Source: a virus (taxonomy: Duplodnaviria > Heunggongvirae > Uroviricota > Caudoviricetes). Taken from it: a stretch of 64,000 nucleotides of DNA. Under the pieces are notes generated by a model that worked only from the letters and a program-made list of their open reading frames with translations, did no database searches and had not been told where the DNA came from. The stretch is taken from IMG/VR virus record IMGVR_UViG_3300031555_002904. One strand, 5' to 3'. Below are positions 4,526-25,218 of this stretch, in pieces. A program made the translations under genes and the position numbers. The stretch's first letter is position 1, and the number at the start of each line of letters is the position of its first letter.

Positions 4526-6601
4526 TTATCCAATAGTCTAATAATAAAGCGTGCCAACTCGAGCATTACCACTAGGTTGATTTGCACCAAAATTGTGACA
4601 AGTATCTCCAGCATTAACTTTAATACCTATTTCGTATCCAACATCAGAAGGAATAGTATCCCAAAATCCATAATTCTAAATAGAAGAATACCATTGATAA
4701 GATTCTAAAACAGTAATGTTTGCCTAAGAATAATTAACGTATTTCATCCACATGGTAAAATTACCAGTACTCTCATTATAATAGGCTTTAAAATCATCAA
4801 TTCCATAAGGGCAAGAGCCATTATAGTTTAAACTTCCAACAAGAGGGGCCAAACCAGCGCTATTAACATCTAAAGTTAGACTAAAAATTCCAGTGCCCTA
4901 ATATCTAGATGAAATTGCTAATACTAACCGAGCATTTCGCCATCCCCCAAGAGTCTCTTGGCAAATTTTTACCCATTTTCCATTGTGAGTGCCAGGTTCG
5001 CCCCACATCGCAGTGGTTGATGTAAGTCTATTAGCTGTAGAAGCCTATCCTGCCGTGGTAGCATAATTTGCGGTACCTGTAAAATAATTAGCATGAATAG
5101 TCGCATCACCATTTGGTCCTCCAAAAACAAATTTAGTTGGAATAGGTCTAGCATCTGTTGCACGATATCCCATATAAATTGTTGAATCTATATAGTTATT
5201 AGTGCCACCGAAATTAATTTCATTATTTTTCTCTGCTACAATACTCATAGTTCCATCACCTATGTTAATATGACTATGAGATTGTGGTTTAAAAGATTCT
5301 TCACTTATTTCAGTTGAATCACTTGGTAAAATTGTATTAAATTGTGCAGTATGAACCCAATTATTTACATATCTACCATTTAATAAAGAAACATCCCAAT
5401 AACCATAACTATTTCCACCATATACTGCAACATATAAATATAATCTATTATTTGTAGCATCTTTATATAAATAAAATGTTCGTTTTATTTTTCCTCCTAT
5501 TTGCACTCTAGAAGTAGAATAACCAAAACCACCATTAGTATCACTCTATACTGTAATTAAATCAGATGAAGAATGCTAATTTCCCCAAAAAGAACTGCTA
5601 ACGCATAACACCCAACTCTAAAATTCAGAACCAACTTGAAAATATCCAAGTTCTAAAATATGTGTATCAGCATCTGCGTAAAATCCTCCCCATGCTGTTC
5701 CATTATAAATAAGAGCTGATGCACCAGTAATGTTAATACCCCAAGTGCCAGAAGCTCCTCCGCCTGTTAAAGTTGGAGAGTATAAATTATAATTGGCAGA
5801 AGTTAGTAAAGTATGCCATGGAATATCAGTTAAAGTAGCATTAGGTTTTTGTATTCCTCTAATTGCAAATCCGTACTAACTACTTCCTGCAATTTGCATT
5901 TTACACACACCATCATGAAAATTTACACATCCGTAATATCCATCCCAGGGTTTTGCACCAGAAACTGTCACTTCATTTGATGCACGTACTTCAAAAAATC
6001 CGTTAAAAGTCAAATTATCAATATTATAAGAATTTCCAACATCTTCCCGAGTGAGTGTGTAGAAACCTCCATTATTAGGTGTTAAAATTTTATAATTAGT
6101 ACCATTTTTACGATGATATATATCAGTGTTATAGGTCTCAAGATAAATACTTTTTCCACTATTACCAGACCCGTAAACTGCCAAAAACAATCCATCTGAT
6201 GAATTAGCAGCTAAATATGCATCTGTATTAATGTTTGTAAATCTTAAAGCATATTCAGCTTTTAATATAGCAGAATCTCCATGAAAATTAATACCATAAA
6301 CATCAGCCCATCTAACAGTTGGTCCACCTAAATTATAAATGGCATCTCCTATTGGATAAAAAGTATTACTATTCATGCGAAAACGAGGTTCTGCCTAAGT
6401 GTAAAATACTAAATCATTATTATTCGCATAACCGCTGCTAGCCATTCCACCAATACCAGCCCATTTAACTGAACTATCACTAGCATTTAAAAATTTTATG
6501 CCTGGACCCCATCCAGTCGAATTGTAATTTAATGTTTGATGAAGTACCAAAGGCCAACTCTAACCATCGAGGTTAGATACATTAATTTTTAAAGCACCCA
6601 T
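4526..6601 (-). CDS. Tail fibre / receptor-binding protein C, 691 aa (code 15)
   Basis: ATG 6601; 11 TAG join track ORFs 5876..6376 and 5045..5506; TAA 4526-4528; starts MGALKIN, ends GTLYYQTIG. Confidence 0.82.
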
Positions 6602-6733
6602 ATAAAATCTTCCTTTCTCTCAAAAATAAAAAGAGTTAAATTCTATTTCTAATAAAATATGAAAAATCTCATGTATGTTTTTTTTTTTCTTTGGGCCAAA
6701 TAAATTTAATTATTCCGATCAGAGAAATTTGAG

Positions 6734-6762
6734 TTGATTTTTCAAAAAAATAATGGTATAAT
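6734..6762 (+). promoter_or_regulatory. sigmaA promoter at the start of the replication block (ancestral gyrB promoter)
   Basis: TTGATT-17 nt-TATAAT with extended -10 TG. Confidence 0.8.
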
Positions 6763-6805
6763 ATAACTACAAGAAAAATCTCAAGAAATTTGAAAGGAGA
6801 ACGAT

Positions 6806-7138
6806 ATGTCAGATTATGGCGTAAAAGACATAAAGACGCTTGAAGGCATCGAAGCGATTAGACTTCGTCCTGGTATGATAGATTATTGTATTGAGCATCA
6901 GTATGAACTTCCACGAAGATTACAATATTATGCTAAATATTATCCAAATGTATCATTTTCCCAAGCATTGGAGTTATATTCTTTGTCTGTTCGAGAGGTT
7001 ATTGTTCTTTTCCAAGCCAAACATTTATTTGACGCTTCTTTAAGTTTTGGTCGTGGTCTTATTTATGCAAGAGACAAATGGCTTGAAAAAATGTCCCAAG
7101 CAGAAAAAATTGCGGCCGCATACCTACTGGCGGAATAA
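6806..7138 (+). CDS. Chimeric ORF: original GyrB residues 1-24 fused to 86 unrelated residues
   Basis: MSDYGVKDIKTLEGIEAIRLRPGM matches the GyrB N-terminus, then diverges exactly where YIG is expected; strong AAAGGAG RBS. Confidence 0.75.
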   Translation: MSDYGVKDIKTLEGIEAIRLRPGMIDYCIEHQYELPRRLQYYAKYYPNVSFSQALELYSLSVREVIVLFQAKHLFDASLSFGRGLIYARDKWLEKMSQAEKIAAAYLLAE

Positions 7139-7185
7139 GGGTCAGTTTCACCGATTTCGTCCCGGCATTGGTCCGGAATGGAAAA

Positions 7186-7214
7186 TTGACTTTTATCAAT
7201 TTTTATGATATAAT
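7186..7214 (+). promoter_or_regulatory. sigmaA promoter for the GIY-YIG gene and the repaired gyrB
   Basis: TTGACT-17 nt-TATAAT with extended -10 TG. Confidence 0.85.
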
Positions 7215-7235
7215 AGAAAGGTAAGGTGAATTTCT

Positions 7236-7988
7236 ATGTATCAAATTTATAAAATAACTAATCAAAAAAATGGAATGGTCTATATTGGTTCATCAATTGA
7301 AGTTGAACGCAGATGGAGACAACATAAAGAAGCTTCCATTAATGAGAAAGACCATCATTATAATTATCCTTTAATGATTGCTTTTAGAGAGTTCGGTATT
7401 GATAATTTTACTTTTGAGATTATTGAAACTCTACCTTCTTGGGAAGAGATGATTGAAGCCGAACATAATTGGATTGTAAAAGAAGATTGTGTAAAACCAA
7501 AAGGCTACAATCAGACTGATAAAACTGATAGCCCAATGTTTGATCCCTCTATCGCAAAAAAAATGAGTGATACTAAACGAGTTAAATATGGTAAAAAAGT
7601 TTGTGAAATCTCTTCTAATAAAGAAATTGTCGGAGCATGGAATTCGTTAGCAGAAGCTGGTGAAAACACGGGTCTTGACCGATTTAAGATTAGTGATGTG
7701 TGCAATGGCCGACGTTTAACCACCGGAGGTAGAGTGTTTAGATTTACTGATGAAGAAGGTAATTTAATTGAACCTGAAATAAAAGTAAATAAAACTCAAA
7801 CCAGTAGAATTACAAAATCCAGTAGGAAAGTTGTAAAAATGAATGATAATAATGAAGAATTACAAGTTTATGATAGCGTAGCACGTGCGGCCGCAGATAA
7901 TAATTGCGACGCAAGTGCCATATCAAAAGTTTGTAACGGTTCAAGAAATAAATGTGGAGGTTTTAAATGGAAATACCTAACAATGTAA
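7236..7988 (+). CDS. GIY-YIG homing endonuclease with two C-terminal NUMOD1-like DNA-binding repeats
   Basis: YQIYKITN...VYIGSS...RWRQH N-terminus; repeats WNSLAEAG...ISDVCNG...GGRVF and YDSVARAA...ISKVCNG...GGFKW. Confidence 0.9.
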   Translation: MYQIYKITNQKNGMVYIGSSIEVERRWRQHKEASINEKDHHYNYPLMIAFREFGIDNFTFEIIETLPSWEEMIEAEHNWIVKEDCVKPKGYNQTDKTDSPMFDPSIAKKMSDTKRVKYGKKVCEISSNKEIVGAWNSLAEAGENTGLDRFKISDVCNGRRLTTGGRVFRFTDEEGNLIEPEIKVNKTQTSRITKSSRKVVKMNDNNEELQVYDSVARAAADNNCDASAISKVCNGSRNKCGGFKWKYLTM

Positions 7989-9886
7989 ATAATGCTGAAT
8001 ATGGCGTTAATCAAATTAAAACCTTGGAAGGAATTGAAGCAATTCGTCTTCGTGCGGGAATGTATATCGGAAGTGTTGGACCCGAAGGTGTCAGACACAT
8101 CACACTCGAAATCATTTCTAATGCAGTTGATGAATATTTAAATGGACATTGTACTCATTGCACCATTGACGTTGGAGAAGATGGCGTAATTTGTATTCAT
8201 GACAATGGTCGTGGCGTTCCTTTTGGCAAGGCTGAGGATGGTAGTGAAGTTTTAGTTAATGTTTATACCAAGCTTCATACTGGTGCAAAGTTTGATAGCT
8301 CTGGCAAGACTGGCTATAATACCTCCGGTGGTATGAATGGTGTCGGTGCTAAAGCAACAAATGCATTGTCTGAAATTTTTACTGTTGTATCTTATCGTGA
8401 CGGTAAAAAGGCTACAGCCGAATTTGCTCGTGGCGAGTTATTAAAATATAATGAAGTACAAGATCCCAATCAAAAAGTTACCGGCACAGCTATTATGTTT
8501 AAACCAGATGCCACCATTTTTAAAGAAGGCATTATGCTTGAATACGCTCCTCTCAAGAAGCAAATCCAAGAGTTAGCTTACTTATCTCCTGGCTTAGTAT
8601 TTGAACTAAACTATAAAGACACTAAAGAAACTATTACTTCTCAAAACGGTATTCGTGATTACATTAATGACCTAAACGATGGTAAAAATAAAGTAACTTC
8701 TGTATTCTATACTGAAAGTATGGAAGATAGAATTGGTGTAAAAATTGCTATGCAATATAATGATACTTATACTGATATGTATCGCTTATATACCAACTCC
8801 ATTCCCAATAGTGCGGGAACCCACTTGACCGGTTTCAGAACCGCGCTCACTTCTACAATCAACGAGTATGCTCGTGAAAAAAAGCTACTCAAAGAAAAAG
8901 ATGCCAATATTACTGGTGAAGAATTGAAGGAAGGTTTAGTTCTTGTCCTGTCCTTCATTATGCCTGACCCTGTTTTCTCCGGTCAGACAAAGGATGTTCT
9001 CTCCAGTAGTGAGGCTCGTACCGCAGTACAACGATTGACCGCAAGAGAAATTAAAGTTTGGCTTGATGCAAATCCAAAAGATGCCAAAGCAATCGTAGAT
9101 AAGGCTCTTCTGGCTCGTGCGGCCCGTGAAAAGGCAAAGAAAGCCAAGGAAACCGTGCGGAAGGTCGATAATAAGCGGCGTGTACTCTTACCTGATGTAT
9201 TGAGTGATGCCAACTCTAAGGATCGTCACCTCTGTGAAGTATTCCTCGTTGAGGGTAAATCCGCTGCCGGTACTACAATCGAAGCTCGTGACCGCAATAC
9301 CCAGGCTGTTTTCCAGCTTCGTGGTAAGATTTTGAATGTTTTGAAAACTGATTTACATAAGGCTCTTCAGAATAAGGAAATTAGCGGTATGATTGACGCC
9401 TTCGGTTTGGAAGTTAAAGATGGTAAGGTTATCGTTGATGAATCTAAGCTGAGATATGGCAAGATTATTATCACCGCGGATGCTGATGTCGACGGAAGCC
9501 ACATTCGAGTCCTGTTCCTTACATTCATTTGGAAATTCTGTCCCGAGCTTATTGAAAAGGGATATATTTATGCAGCAGTACCTCCTCTATATAAAGCAAC
9601 ATATGGTACCAATATCAAGTATCTCGTAAATGATGCTGCGCTCAATGAATTTAGAGCTGGTATGAAGAGATCTTTTGAGCTGGGTCGTATGAAAGGCTTA
9701 GGTGAGATGGACCCAGATGAAATGGCTGAAACTGTTATGAATGCTAAGACTCGTATTCTTAAACAGATTACTATGGAAGACGCAGCAGCAGTCGCGCAGA
9801 CATTTATGAGTTTAATGGGAGAGTCGGTTACGCCCAGAAAGAAGTTCATTGAAGAGAACTCTTGGAGGGCTAATATTGATGTCTGA
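7967..9886 (+). CDS. gyrB: DNA gyrase / type IIA topoisomerase subunit B
   Basis: EIISNAVDE, DNGRGVP, GGMNGVG (GHKL ATPase); VEGKSA, LRGKILN, DADVDG, KGLGEM (TOPRIM). Confidence 0.97.
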   Translation: MEIPNNVNNAEYGVNQIKTLEGIEAIRLRAGMYIGSVGPEGVRHITLEIISNAVDEYLNGHCTHCTIDVGEDGVICIHDNGRGVPFGKAEDGSEVLVNVYTKLHTGAKFDSSGKTGYNTSGGMNGVGAKATNALSEIFTVVSYRDGKKATAEFARGELLKYNEVQDPNQKVTGTAIMFKPDATIFKEGIMLEYAPLKKQIQELAYLSPGLVFELNYKDTKETITSQNGIRDYINDLNDGKNKVTSVFYTESMEDRIGVKIAMQYNDTYTDMYRLYTNSIPNSAGTHLTGFRTALTSTINEYAREKKLLKEKDANITGEELKEGLVLVLSFIMPDPVFSGQTKDVLSSSEARTAVQRLTAREIKVWLDANPKDAKAIVDKALLARAAREKAKKAKETVRKVDNKRRVLLPDVLSDANSKDRHLCEVFLVEGKSAAGTTIEARDRNTQAVFQLRGKILNVLKTDLHKALQNKEISGMIDAFGLEVKDGKVIVDESKLRYGKIIITADADVDGSHIRVLFLTFIWKFCPELIEKGYIYAAVPPLYKATYGTNIKYLVNDAALNEFRAGMKRSFELGRMKGLGEMDPDEMAETVMNAKTRILKQITMEDAAAVAQTFMSLMGESVTPRKKFIEENSWRANIDV

Positions 9887-10109
9887 GTATCATGGATACT
9901 GGTTTTATGGGTTGAGAAATGATGAAATTATCCAAGCAAAAGATTTAGCTGAAGAGTATTGTCTTTTGAATTGTCCCCAGGAATATGATGGGCCATTCAC
10001 ATATGAAGCATAGGTGATTCGTTATCGCCTTGCCAATCCAACCCTAAGTCGCGATTTCAATCAAATGCTAAAAGATATGGAGAAATTTTATTATGGCGAA
10101 TGTAATTAA
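9879..10109 (+). CDS. Hypothetical protein, 76 aa (code 15)
   Basis: ATG overlapping the gyrB stop; one TAG; TAA at 10107. Confidence 0.6.
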
Positions 10110-10329
10110 GATCGCACCTTGCGATACAGTTCTCGTCACTATTGGCAATGATGTTGATCTTGATGAATATAGAGCTATTGCCGATCGCTTCATCGAGAAT
10201 CTTCACACATAGAATGTAATTCTAATGCCAGAATATGCAGTAAAAGATATTACAGTATTCAAGCGTGAGCTTACTGGCACGAGTAATATGTTTTTGAATG
10301 GAGGATGCCTATATGAGTAGTCTTACTAA
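10093..10329 (+). CDS. Hypothetical protein, 78 aa (code 15); probable paralog of the next gene
   Basis: MANVIKIAPCDTVLVTIG..., two TAG, tightly packed between neighbours. Confidence 0.55.
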
Positions 10330-10717
10330 TGGCGAGTGGTATCCCGACGATCAAATTTATTACTTACCTACAAATAAAATTGGTATTGGTACAGTAGACT
10401 CTACCAAGGCTGTAATTGAACCATTTAAAGGATATGATATTCAAACCATTGAAGTCAAACCCAATGATGTACTTTTACTTCGCATTTCTGATAATTTAGA
10501 TTTGCATACCTGTGAAGAAATCCAGAGAGAGATGAATGAAACATTTCCCAATAATGTAACTTTATTGTGTAACGACCACATTTTCAAAGGTTTGACGATT
10601 TTGCGAGGCAACACTGCTAAGCGCATTGATGATACTGTGGATATTTACTCTGGAATCAATGTAGATAAATTATTTGACCATATAATGAAAGGACACCCCA
10701 ATGATTTTCTATACTGA
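10313..10717 (+). CDS. Hypothetical protein
   Basis: GGAGG RBS before ATG 10313; in frame with track ORF 10298..10717. Confidence 0.65.
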   Translation: MSSLTNGEWYPDDQIYYLPTNKIGIGTVDSTKAVIEPFKGYDIQTIEVKPNDVLLLRISDNLDLHTCEEIQREMNETFPNNVTLLCNDHIFKGLTILRGNTAKRIDDTVDIYSGINVDKLFDHIMKGHPNDFLY

Positions 10718-16774: not shown

Positions 16775-17764
16775 ATGGAATGGTTGATTTTACTCGCCTC
16801 TGTGCTCGTTGCTGCCGGATTAGGCGGCTTTATCACATATCGACTGTTTAGATAGCGGCTATTTGCCGTCCAGGAGTTCGACAAGTCGATTGCTATGAAA
16901 AACGAGCAATTAAGAGAAGAAAATAAGATTTTAGAAGAGAATAATCAAGATTTATTCAATCAAAATGATTATCTAAAATCTGAAAAAATCAAGCTGGATA
17001 TTCAAAACCAATCTGCTAAAGAGTAGTTGGAGAGCCTCAATGGCAGTATCTCAGCTATGGAAAAGTAGGCTCAAGAGGCCGCTGAACTATTCTATGCGTC
17101 TCGTATGTAGGCTGCATAGGAGAAACTCGCGCAATCACTTCAAGAAGAAAACCAAAAATATCAAGATAATATAATTGGTTTTTAGACTGAATATGATAAA
17201 ACTGTTGCTGATATGTTAGAAGCTTTTCAAGAGTTATCTGATAATGTAGCTGTTATGCGAGCTACAAATGACGCCGCAGTTGCCGCAGCCAAGAGAGCCG
17301 CTGAAATGAAAGATTAGTAGGCTTTTTATCGCATTTAGTTATCTGACGCAGATATTCACGAAATTGAATTATTGCGATAGGTTGAACCCTATTTGCGAGA
17401 TAAGGAGCCTTTGAATAAAGTCATATGGAAATGCTATTACGAAAAACCAACCACCGACCTTATTGGTCGAGTAATTGGTACAGGAGTAAAAACTGGAATT
17501 TATAAAATTACAGAAATTGAAACTGGTAAATGCTATGTTGGTTAGGCTGCTAATTTAGCAGACCGTTGGAAATAGCATATTAAGCGTGGTGTAGGCGCAG
17601 AAACGCCAACCCGCAACAAACTCTATCCTGCAATGATTGCGGCCGGCCCAGAGAATTTCACTTTTGAGGTCGTCGAAATCTGCGATCGCTCTGCGCTCGA
17701 TGCGCGTGAGGACTACTGGCAGGATTATTTCAAGGCGAAAGAATTTGGATACAGTATAAAGTAA
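16775..17764 (+). CDS. Membrane-anchored coiled-coil protein with a C-terminal GIY-YIG nuclease domain, 329 aa (code 15; absent from the ORF track)
   Basis: N-terminal TM helix, long coiled coil, then GIYKITEIETGKCYVG*AANLADRWK*H; 12 in-frame TAG, no TAA/TGA until 17762. Confidence 0.85.
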
Positions 17765-22585: not shown

Positions 22586-25218
22586 ATGGCGTCTAAATAC
22601 GTCGATACAACAGCTATAATGTAGGTTATTGGCTGTGTTTTCAATACTCCTCAACTTTTGGAAATTACTGATAGGTATTCAATCGTTGATGAAGATTTCG
22701 CCGATCCGTTTCACAAAACGATTTTCGGTGCAATTTATAAAATCCATGAGTTAGGTGCGAATAAAATTACATTAGAAAGCATTTCTGATTTCTTCGCATC
22801 TCGACCCAAGAGCGCGGCTGTATATAAGCAAGGGAAGGGCGAAGAATGGCTACTCAAGGTATCTGAGAGTAGTATTCCATCAGCCTTCGATTATTATTAC
22901 GGTCGTTTGAAAAAATTCTCTCTATTGAGAGCATTTGATAACTGCGGCATTGATGTTACTGACATTTATGACCCAGATAATATTTTGGATGTAAAGAAGA
23001 AACAACTTCAAGAGGATCAATTAGATAATTCTTCACTGGAACAGATTGCTGATATTGTCGATGCGAAGATTGATAATATTAGATTGCAATATGTTGATGA
23101 TGCTTTTGGTGAAGCTCAACAAGCCGGTGAAGGTATTTTTGATTTGATTGAGAAATTCAAACAGCATCCAGAAGTCGGTGTACCTCTATATGGTCCGCTA
23201 ATCAATACAGTTACTCGAGGCGCAAGACTGAAGAAATTTTACTTGCGGTCTGCGGCTACTGGTATCGGTAAGACCCGTTCAATGATTGCGGATTGCTGCT
23301 ACATCGGCTGCAATAAGATATATGATGAAACATTTGGTTGGATTGGCAGCGGTCCTGCAGAGCCAGTCTTATTTATCACGACCGAGCAGGAGCTTGAAGA
23401 AATCCAAACTATGATGTTGGCATTTTTATCAAATGTAAATGAGGAACATATTCTAAATGGTGAGTATGGTGAGGGTGAGGAAGAGCGTGTTATGCAGGCT
23501 GCTAAACTCTTGAAAGAAAGTCCTATTTATGTTGAAGAATTACCAGATTTCTCATTGAAAGATGTAGAAGATAAGATAAAGAAAAATATTCGTGAGCACG
23601 ATGTAAAATATGTGTTCAACCCTATTAAAAGGGTGTTGGGACAATGAAACACTTTTCCGCTAATCAGCGGGGTACCTGCGGCGGGCCCGGTCAAAGACCG
23701 GCGAACCGAGCAACCGCAAGTGCTAACGGGGAACCCTAAACAGTAATGCATGGGAATCCCGTGGGAAACTTTGGACGGAACTAGTCAATTGAGCTTTGAC
23801 TTCTTTCATACTATAATGAAAGGAGTGGTTCTATGGGAATTATTTATTGTTTTACAAATAATGTAAATGGTAAAAAATATATCGGACAATCCATTAGCAA
23901 AGGTAATGCTCGATATAATAATCATAAAAGCAGTTATAAAAATCCAGATGATTGTGAATATGAATCTCCACTTCATCGAGCATTCCGCAAACACGGATTT
24001 GAAAATTTTACTTATGAAGTATTAGCACAAGATGTTGAAAATATTGATTTATTAAATCAATTAGAAATTCAATATATTCAACAATATAATTGTCAAATAC
24101 CAAATGGTTATAATATTGAACCCGGCGGTAAAAATTGTGCTAAACCCAAAACAATAGAGCATAGAAAGAAAGAAATTTGGGCTCAAGCGAAATTGACAGA
24201 AGAAGAAGTTATTGAATTAAGAAAGGCATATCAAAGAAAAGAAAGTCCTACTAAAATATATAAAGAAAAGTATGAAGATATAATGCATTATAATTCTTTT
24301 CTAAATATTTGGTCTGGACGAAGATATGCTCTTATTATGCCAGAAGTATTTGAAAATGGACGTCATACAAAACTCAATGCTGAAACTGTAAAACTTATTA
24401 GAAAGGATAGAGAAGAAACAAATCTTTCTTATGATAAGTTAGCAGAGAAGTATGGCATTTCAAAAGGCACTATTGCTGACATAATCAAAAAACGAACTTG
24501 GAAAGATGTCTAAAGAACCTGTATCGACTATCCCCCAGGCCTTCTGGGCGGGGGAGTAGGGGTGCTATTGATACGCACTTGGATTTTAGGAAACGAAGTC
24601 CATTAAATGCCGAAACGGTGTCCTGCGGGACCCGGTCAGCCGTTCGCTGAACCGGGGCGACCGCAGTAAAAGATAGTCAGCGCTTATAGAAATATAAGAG
24701 TCCGTTGCCACGATTATATTCATACGAGTTTGAAAATTTTGGAAGAAATCACTAAGCGTTCTGGTGGTGTCAAACTGAGAGAAGATAATATCTTGTTTAT
24801 GTTATCTACTCGATTGAAAGATATCTGCAACCAACATGGTGTGTTTATCATGTCAGCCACTCAGTTGAACGGTGATTACCAGGATAGTAAAACTCCAGAC
24901 CAGAACTTACTGCGTGGTGCGAAAGCTATCGCAGATAAGATTGACTATGGCTCCATTCTTCTTTCTGTAAAAGATGATGATTTGGTAGCCTTAGAAAATA
25001 TATTATCCTCTAATATTTTTGAAAGACCTACAATTAAGATGTCAATTTACAAAAATAGACGAGGTAGATATAAGGGCGTAATTTTATGGTGTAAGGCAGA
25101 TTTGGGCGTGTGTCGTATTAAACCAATGTTCTGCACTACCTATGATTATGAAATGGTGAGTATTGACGATGTTCGTATTAGAATTGACGAAGAATCAGCC
25201 TTCGAGTGCGAAGAGTAA
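22586..25218 (+). CDS. dnaB: Replicative DNA helicase, 513 aa; join(22586..23616,24708..25218) (code 15)
   Basis: ATG 22586, TAG at codon 13; SAATGIGKT Walker A; splicing restores KYVFHDYIH (Walker B); exon 2 has ATQLN and RGAKAIADKID. Confidence 0.9.
23617..24707 (+). mobile_element. Group I self-splicing intron in dnaB
   Basis: Exon 1 ends in U, which can form a U-G pair in P1 (TGTT|C with GGACA); intron ends in G; P7 GACTATC/GATAGTC; P4-like ACGGGGAA/AATCCCGT; P6a CTTTGGAC/GTCTAAAG encloses the ORF; removal restores the frame. Confidence 0.88.
23833..24513 (+). CDS. Intron-encoded GIY-YIG homing endonuclease with C-terminal HTH repeats
   Basis: GIIYCFTN..NGKKYIGQS, E..YI, NGYN; C-terminal LSYDKLAEKYGISKGTIADI. 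Confidence 0.9.
   Translation: MGIIYCFTNNVNGKKYIGQSISKGNARYNNHKSSYKNPDDCEYESPLHRAFRKHGFENFTYEVLAQDVENIDLLNQLEIQYIQQYNCQIPNGYNIEPGGKNCAKPKTIEHRKKEIWAQAKLTEEEVIELRKAYQRKESPTKIYKEKYEDIMHYNSFLNIWSGRRYALIMPEVFENGRHTKLNAETVKLIRKDREETNLSYDKLAEKYGISKGTIADIIKKRTWKDV

Follow-up and report, generated by a model that had tools for sequence, protein, structure and literature searches.

How can a homing endonuclease gene lie inside an essential phage gene when neither an intron nor an intein is there to remove it? The question is raised by the gyrB locus at positions 6806-9886 of a stretch of 64,000 nucleotides (nt), hereafter the window (WIN), from IMG/VR record IMGVR_UViG_3300031555_002904. The source record is a fragment of 73.9 kilobases (kb), about 41% complete, of a large animal-gut phage. 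A first-pass annotation, made from the letters of the window alone, had proposed that a homing-endonuclease element interrupts gyrB between the codons for PGM and YIG (the PGM/YIG junction) and supplies a replacement 5' end. The boundaries of the insert and the related loci described below back this proposal, and we consider it very probable that the locus contains a homing-endonuclease cassette, intron-less and intein-less, which replaces the start of gyrB. For comparison we used 80 related gyrB loci taken from viral metagenome contigs in a first scan, and a second metagenome scan for which the query was an alignment of three endonucleases. Related metagenomic loci are numbered L, related proteins P and public sequencing runs X.

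Organization of the interrupted gyrB locus

All the features reported here lie on the + strand. The original gyrB start is still present in the window, as first annotated: it is preceded by a promoter-like site at 6734-6762 (TTGATT-17-TATAAT with TG, 10 of 12 matches), and the first 24 codons of the recipient gene, recognized by homology to relatives, were left by the insertion as a stub at 6806-6877 that ends with RLRPGM and is cut before YIG. The segment 6724-6877 is 88-90% identical to the promoter and gene start of the endonuclease-free loci L001 and L004. The open reading frame (ORF) that begins with the stub (6806-7138) has a ribosome-binding site (RBS), starts with MSDYGVKDIKTLEGIEAIRLRPGM, departs from GyrB after codon 24 and runs through 86 further codons to a TAA stop (7136-7138). 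It encodes a chimera of 110 amino acids made of the stub, a helical domain and the tail AAAYLLAE. The 86 codons had been noted as an extension; they are indeed present, but they are not a mere extension, as they encode a real folded protein domain. This filler, at 6878-7111, corresponds to about 78 internal codons of a small phage protein of helical structure and is in frame with the stub.

The constant left end of the cassette follows at 7112-7235. It starts with GCGGCCGC, encodes AAAxLLAE and a stop codon, and continues with a leader, a promoter and the RBS of the endonuclease gene. The promoter-like site located there (7186-7214; 11 of 12 matches, with TG) is stronger than the native one and precedes the endonuclease gene itself (7236-7988), a free-standing GIY-YIG gene of 250 amino acids with NUMOD-like repeats according to Pfam and PHROG. 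The element-borne replacement start of gyrB (7956-8062) comprises a GGAGG at 7956-7960, an ATG at 7967 and 32 codons ending with RLRAGM; the ATG lies within the 3' end of the endonuclease gene, giving an overlap of 22 nt. This second GyrB N-terminus (copy 2) repeats the gyrB start (EYGVNQIKTLEGIEAIRLRAGM) and is followed by YIG. The resulting functional gyrB (7967-9886) is a hybrid, whose 5' end comes from the cassette and whose body comes from the recipient; it ends with TGA. Its product of 639 amino acids contains the four domains HATPase_c, DNA_gyraseB, Toprim and GyrB_C (Pfam) and matches PHROG 543 at 5e-148. The three ORFs of the locus have TAA or TGA as stop codons. The insert thus spans 6878-8062, or 1185 base pairs (bp), and the new promoter, the GIY-YIG gene and the second N-terminus with RLRAGM were all found at the positions first assigned to them. 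Recomputing the comparison of the two N-termini gave the same 18 identical residues out of 22; at the DNA level, 46 of 63 positions are identical and the longest common exact run is 8 nt.

The native promoter-like site is now expected to drive the stub chimera. No terminator was found on the + strand up to 8200, and read-through from this promoter into the cassette is probable. In the region 6692-6819 the summed contig depth rises 10-30 fold in four of four runs, with many loose ends at 6730-6774; this promoter module is not repeated inside the window and seems to be common to many contigs of the samples. As a separate observation, the 8-bp GC palindrome GCGGCCGC occurs at 7112-7119 and again at 7889-7896, that is, in two copies less than 800 bp apart in AT-rich DNA; the first copy coincides with the boundary between filler and cassette and is conserved in five other composite loci.

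The arrangement is not an assembly artefact, because contigs of a further public run (X6), one that is not flagged as a possible source, match 6790-7628, 7599-7718 and 7689-8400 with zero mismatches and bridge both junctions, and because the same design occurs in independent assemblies (see below).

Foreign origin of the cassette

We then located the borders of the foreign DNA by comparison with relatives. DNA alignments of the window with endonuclease-free relatives (L001, L004, L018 and others) all stop exactly at 6877 and resume inside gyrB. The stub is identical to L001 at 59 of 63 nt, and its protein is 100% identical, over exactly 24 residues, to the gyrB starts of seven loci (L001, L018, L020, L025, L042-44). 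On the other side of the insert, L001 is 73% identical to the window up to 8083 and 95% identical just after, the mismatches being dense before this position and sparse beyond it. The reverse pattern was obtained with L003, a contig that begins in the 3' end of the endonuclease gene: its identity to the window is 98% between 7864 and about 8082 and only about 72% thereafter, with 4 mismatches in 7864-8082 and a rising number beyond. Judging from these mismatch maps, the co-conversion tract and right-hand crossover zone lie at 8063-8097, the donor-like DNA stopping between 8081 and 8097. The stub and the gyrB body belong to an L001-like backbone, and the insert is foreign: together with about 20-35 nt of gyrB past the PGM/YIG junction, it is recently shared donor-type DNA. 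As the cassette is 98% identical to that of L003 and the backbones only about 72%, the cassette must be much younger than the two phage backbones that carry it.

The second start had been described as a recoded copy of the 5' end. This description has to be abandoned: copy 2 is identical to L003 at 63 of 63 nt and is no further from the stub than from the alleles of other phages, as expected from the ordinary divergence of a foreign allele.

An empty allele was found in the DNA run X7, in which the gyrB body follows the stub region without interruption and the letters are L001-like. It is accompanied in the same run by pieces of the element at 100% identity.

The same design recurs at one site of gyrB

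Most of the 80 fetched loci have a plain gyrB whose start reads RLRPGMYIG, which is the form that had been predicted for element-free relatives. When both scans were pooled, a homologous endonuclease gene (62-84% identity) was found immediately before gyrB in 17 other loci. The stub is present wherever upstream DNA was available, namely in L034/L117, L093 (joined to L002), L109, L110, L111, L112, L114, L115 and L116, and these independently assembled loci repeat the order of stub, filler, endonuclease gene and complete gyrB seen in the window. The layout of the replacement start is also that of the window in L002, L003 and L109-L116. The arrangement is no single case; it belongs to a widespread family. 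A blastn search of the GenBank phage collection with 6400-8500 gave zero matches, and the relatives obtained by tblastn were all below 43% identity.

Near-isogenic pairs of occupied and empty loci (95-98% identity) were obtained for several members of the family: L111, L112 and L113 with L039, L117 with L077, L120 with L017, L119 with L022 and L118 with L012. In every pair the foreign tract stops on the right 2-23 nt past the PGM/YIG junction. The position of the left break is variable and ranges between 63 nt upstream and 3 nt downstream of this junction. It follows CCCG in L116, GGTAT in L110, L114 and L117, GGTATG in the window, L109, L111 and L112, and GGTATGTAT in L093 and L115. In loci of the L045/L049/L118-121 type it lies at about codon 5, homology to the empty partner ending 13 nt into gyrB. 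These loci might be taken for stub-less forms; this was ruled out, since an upstream ORF of 74 amino acids starts with the first 4-5 codons of gyrB (MATTT). The left end of the cassette itself is conserved in the window, L110, L114, L115, L093, L116 and L117, and the DNA to its left differs; the tail AAAxLLAE with its stop is conserved in the window, L110, L114, L116 and L117.

Some candidates were discarded. Matches to the junction pattern in three viral contigs (L106-L108) and to the leader pattern in L095 are regarded as due to chance, none of the parts being encoded there. As a separate observation, in L072 (5001-7183) the gyrB match is about 290 bp longer than expected, corresponding to an insertion.

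Properties of the endonuclease

The catalytic domain of the endonuclease was recognized by Pfam as GIY-YIG (PF01541, 1.6e-13) and its C-terminal DNA-binding region as I-HmuI NUMOD-like (PF22083, two stretches, 3.8e-12); the protein also matches PHROG 314 and 7168 (homing endonuclease). Comparison with the I-TevI catalytic domain (1MK0/1LN0) gave an E value of 7e-9, with Y5, Y16, R26, E76 and N92 in place. The columns of R26 and E76 align with R27 and E75 of I-TevI, which we take to be the residues mutated in 1MK0 and 1LN0. The gene is full length, with an intact catalytic motif, and its catalytic residues, its modular DNA-binding tail and its presence/absence polymorphism with co-conversion are those of a putative GIY-YIG homing endonuclease of the I-TevI/Seg type.

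The first 47 residues are 100% identical in three cassettes (window 7236-7376; L002:70-210; L034:5191-5331), which are otherwise 72-78% identical, and the divergence among these three endonucleases is concentrated in the C-terminal DNA-binding part. This distribution suggests recombination or strong constraint at the 5' end of the gene. Two more GIY-YIG relatives, 38% identical over the catalytic domain, are encoded in the same genome at about 23842-24117 and 17498-17686 of the window (G000:C1, 44436-44711 and 50867-51055); the second contains two in-frame TAG codons.

Substitutions at the junction of occupied alleles

The RPGMYIG motif is altered by a substitution in all 18 distinct gyrB copies linked to an endonuclease gene, and the residue that is changed goes with the endonuclease clade. 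The motif reads RAGMYIG in the window, L003 and L109-113, RPGMYVG in L002 and L114-116, and RPGMFIG in L034/L117, L045, L049 and L118-121. Among unlinked alleles, about 61 of 75 have the consensus RPGMYIG. Such linked substitutions would fit target-site immunity of the carrier allele. The first-pass annotation had attributed resistance to cleavage to recoding; if the resistance is real, it more likely rests on the changes adjacent to the junction (P to A, I to V or Y to F). Some unlinked alleles already have RAG or YVG (L004-6, L009-11, L077); such alleles may have been occupied in the past and retain a trace of it, or may be resistant by nature.

Helical domain and other fillers

A phmmer search of 1.84 billion representatives with the filler of the window gave 45 matches at E<=1e-3, mostly to free-standing phage proteins of 85-110 amino acids that share the motif QYxLP...YPxVTW...LSFGRG. 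The filler lacks about the first five residues of this family, the stub standing in their place, and its C-terminus is replaced by the cassette tail from GCGGCCGC at 7112 onwards. Neither Pfam nor PHROG matched the family (the 86-residue segment and 32 members), and Foldseek found nothing in PDB at E<=0.001 for the domain. The AlphaFold model has four helices, with a mean pLDDT of 96.1, and comparison with the copy in L096 gave a ratio of nonsynonymous to synonymous substitution rates (dN/dS) of 0.22. The filler is thus modelled as a well-folded helical domain of a widespread family of small phage proteins, and it is under purifying selection. The gene of this family might have been a regular upstream neighbour of gyrB, but only one of six contexts (L103) agrees, and no general rule emerges.

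In the locus L096, from a phage of 195.7 kb, the protein P0001 has the identical junction between stub and domain (GGTATG/ATAGATT), and there is no endonuclease gene. The stub of L096 is changed at five positions where genuine GyrB proteins are invariant. Because the stub has decayed while the helical domain shows a dN/dS of 0.22, the passenger has been kept and the stub serves only as a leader. In this locus (L096:5001-10345) the stub and domain ORF is followed by a terminator, RNase H, a divergent gyrB (39% identical), gyrA and a ligase gene. It looks as if the original gyrB and the endonuclease gene had been lost, the essential gene being displaced by a xenologue. The helical-domain gene of L096 carries GCGGCCACA where its divergence from the window begins, which suggests a join at a microhomology.

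Other composite loci have other fillers. In L110 and L114 the filler is a zinc-ribbon segment, a type for which there are 15 clusters of stub-fused proteins, including one of 218 members, and a free-standing relative with its own termini (P0060). L111 and L112 have an ORF of 60 amino acids, and L109, L093 and L115 have separate small ORFs, that of L093 without a relative among the fetched loci; L116 and L117 have no filler. Internal segments of unrelated small phage genes (helical domain, zinc ribbon, other ORFs) are thus found in frame at both ends of the same slot. We propose only tentatively, as a possibility that we rather doubt, that the stub, with its strong native promoter, RBS and 24 codons, and the constant tail form a slot for gene capture and expression. 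If this were true, the homing element would be a small natural gene drive for cargo that rides between phages, and not a pure parasite.

Proposed mechanism and rival explanations

The cassette consists, in order, of the AAAxLLAE leader with its stop, its own promoter, the GIY-YIG/NUMOD gene, an RBS and start codon in the 3' end of this gene, and about 32 foreign gyrB codons. According to the mechanism that we propose, the endonuclease would cut an endonuclease-free gyrB at or beside the PGM/YIG codons (ATG/TAT). The right end of the break would be repaired by homologous recombination with the donor gyrB, with a crossover 2-36 nt past the junction. On first entry into a backbone without homology upstream of the endonuclease gene, the left end would be joined illegitimately, stranding the promoter, RBS and first 24 codons of the recipient as a stub. 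Once formed, such a composite would have homology on both sides, through its stub and gyrB body, and could home like an intron. The gyrB gene would stay intact because translation restarts inside the cassette, and the stub would become an expression leader for the ORF behind it, here the helical domain. The fixed homologous right boundary and the variable illegitimate left boundary point to one-sided break repair after variable resection, with the break at or beside ATG/TAT; that the element arose in just this way, a double-strand break being repaired illegitimately on one side, we regard as somewhat more probable than not.

Several points weigh against the reading as a homing cassette or against parts of it. 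The nearest available relative of the window backbone has only about 83% DNA identity, and for this exact phage the comparison of empty and occupied alleles depends on L001 and on the contig from X7, in which 104 nt contain 11 mismatches. There are only three endonuclease clades, hence few independent events, and the association of motif and endonuclease is phylogenetically weak; moreover, the unlinked RAG and YVG alleles mentioned above exist without a cassette. Both the position of cleavage and the immunity of copy 2 are deduced from boundaries and linked substitutions and are to be taken as conditional. The fillers vary next to a left cassette end that is constant, which a simple model of one-sided repair does not predict. 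Finally, contigs from RNA libraries (X19, X20) cover the endonuclease gene and its overlap with gyrB, but such contigs are not informative on transcription, ends or strand, so that they neither prove transcription of the cassette nor exclude rare splicing.

Removal of the 1185 nt by a self-splicing group I or group II intron, or by translational bypass, would join the first start to YIG. Phage endonuclease genes do often lie within group I introns, and like some intron ORFs, that of the stub continues the reading frame of the upstream exon. However, an Rfam search of 6000-10500 revealed no Intron_gpI or gpII even at E<=10, the only matches at this threshold being chance-level ones to CRISPR repeat, miRNA and snoRNA families, and none was detected at the gathering score in six related loci (L034, L042, L045, L072, L077, L103). 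Only 74 nt separate the endonuclease stop from the end of the insert, and all of them encode the duplicate GyrB start, which has its own Shine-Dalgarno sequence and ATG; the insert begins with the coding sequence of a folded domain, followed by a promoter. Since the fillers differ or are missing among the composites, no shared RNA core is possible. The joined forms seen in X7 and X20 are empty alleles rather than spliced products, because the joint carries the letters of other alleles. Splicing or bypass is for these reasons extremely improbable. As to inteins, Pfam found no Hint domain in the 110-residue ORF or in the GyrB N-terminus. A fractured gene with a split intein (PMC2677866) was also considered and rejected: there are no Hint halves, and the second ORF is a full duplicate N-terminus and not an IntC. 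The first-pass statement that the element has no group I core and is neither intron nor intein is thus borne out by the Rfam and Pfam searches.

The duplication might instead be a passive scar, left by an illegitimate exchange between two diverged phages in which the start of gyrB was duplicated and an endonuclease gene was trapped by chance, the arrangement not promoting its own spread. The illegitimate left junction and the heterogeneous fillers would agree with such an event, as would the fusion of stub and domain kept in L096 without an endonuclease gene and the degraded endonuclease genes of L045, L049 and L121. A scar would not account for the presence of the same cassette at the same gyrB site in many backbones, with tight right boundaries and near-isogenic empty partners, nor for a cassette identity of 98% against a backbone identity of about 72%. 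In addition, the endonuclease gene of the window is intact, and a single type of stub-fused filler accounts for 15 protein clusters including the one with 218 members. We therefore judge a scar improbable. Lower still is the probability we give to the idea that selection acts on the stub chimera, the GyrB arm and helical domain forming a functional neo-protein (for example one docking on the GyrB ATPase domain) with the endonuclease as an incidental neighbour. The low dN/dS of the helical domain, its survival in L096 after loss of the endonuclease gene and of the original gyrB, and the in-frame fusions of several independent filler types speak for it. Yet the stub part has decayed at GyrB-invariant residues in L096 and P0051 while the passenger domain was kept, the fillers are mutually unrelated and absent from L116 and L117, and family members exist free-standing without a GyrB arm, only one of the six contexts adjoining gyrB. 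A neo-protein is accordingly very improbable, and the homing cassette remains the reading that we retain.

Relation to known systems

The closest known system is the MobA/gene 60 cassette of T4-like phages, located in the gene for the large subunit of topoisomerase II (Manning & Atkins preprint, doi 10.1101/2022.08.31.505936; Edgell et al. review PMC2988022). Both are free-standing endonuclease cassettes that have repeatedly entered a phage gene for a type II topoisomerase at a single site, and both add an in-frame tail to the upstream ORF. Both also encode a diverged homologue of the displaced host segment (HomR in MobA/gene 60; here copy 2, 7967-8062, for stub codons 1-24), have ORFs that overlap the endonuclease gene out of frame, show a slightly variable insertion point and have lost the endonuclease, or let it decay, in some lineages. 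The enzyme, in contrast, is of GIY-YIG type here and HNH in MobA, and the site is codon 24 instead of the Toprim domain. MobA/gene 60 yields two working subunits and involves a 50-nt bypass, whereas here there is one ORF of 639 amino acids, whose upstream part is replaced and whose translation restarts; the upstream stub no longer forms part of the gyrase and acts as a leader in front of small, unrelated ORFs.

A second parallel is provided by fungal mitochondrial mORFs with a foreign gene terminus, in Allomyces macrogynus atp6 and in Glomus atp6, atp9, cox2 and nad3 (PMC3630166). There too, the endonuclease ORF moves together with a foreign, diverged version of one terminus of the host gene, and the native terminus is displaced and persists as a remnant. 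The two versions are alike as proteins but have diverged as DNA, and splicing is not required. The likeness is an analogy of design, not homology. The mORFs carry the 3' end and the present cassette the 5' end, as in a mirror image, and a 5' version must therefore bring a promoter, an RBS and a start codon. The host is moreover a phage and not an organelle, and the remnant keeps its native expression signals and would be translated as a chimera.

The element can also be compared with the intron-less homing of T4 seg and mob genes and with genes split by such endonucleases (Aeh1 nrdA/mobE, T4 39/60; PMC2988022). Like these it has a free-standing GIY-YIG endonuclease with an I-TevI-like catalytic domain and a modular DNA-binding tail, would spread by break repair with co-conversion and shows presence/absence polymorphism between related phages. 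The usual location of seg and mob genes is intergenic, and their products cut at some distance; the present element is inside a coding region, and its boundaries would put the break within a few nt of the insertion, as for intron-encoded enzymes. The positions of the breaks are grouped within about 10 nt. With their variable left side and fixed right side, the boundaries resemble the illegitimate junctions formed after variable resection in T4 intron homing with one-sided homology, so far as these are described in a summary (Parker, Belisle & Belfort 1999, as summarised in PMC2988022). According to that summary the junctions came from a laboratory construct, while the products found here are natural, recurrent and apparently propagating.

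The trick is thus known from fungal mitochondria and from phage T4, but not in its present form. Besides self-splicing introns or inteins and gene splitting, it offers a third way for a homing endonuclease to reside inside an essential phage gene: the element replaces the 5' end of the gene and restarts translation from signals within the endonuclease gene. The occupied and empty pairs, the three clades with distinct junction substitutions and the series of left breakpoints constitute a natural resource with which recognition, immunity and one-sided repair become testable. The reading also accounts for the small chimeric ORFs with a GyrB N-terminus of large animal-gut phages, which should not be taken for gyrase regulators in annotation.

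Later interruptions of gyrB

The gyrB of the window is uninterrupted further downstream. In many relatives (L112:3349-6309; L113:852-3650; L103:4288-8285; L037, L039-L045, L047-L050, L076-L080) other GIY-YIG genes cause a second or third interruption, located after approximately residue 517 and approximately residue 583 (RMKG/LGEM). Rfam at the gathering score gave no intron for these interruptions. At both sites gyrB is truly split: the first ORF gains a tail of about 20 amino acids (YEEVWPLPTFPLIGGVANW), and the second has a short new N-terminus and repeats 8-9 residues. These later splits resemble T4 39/60.

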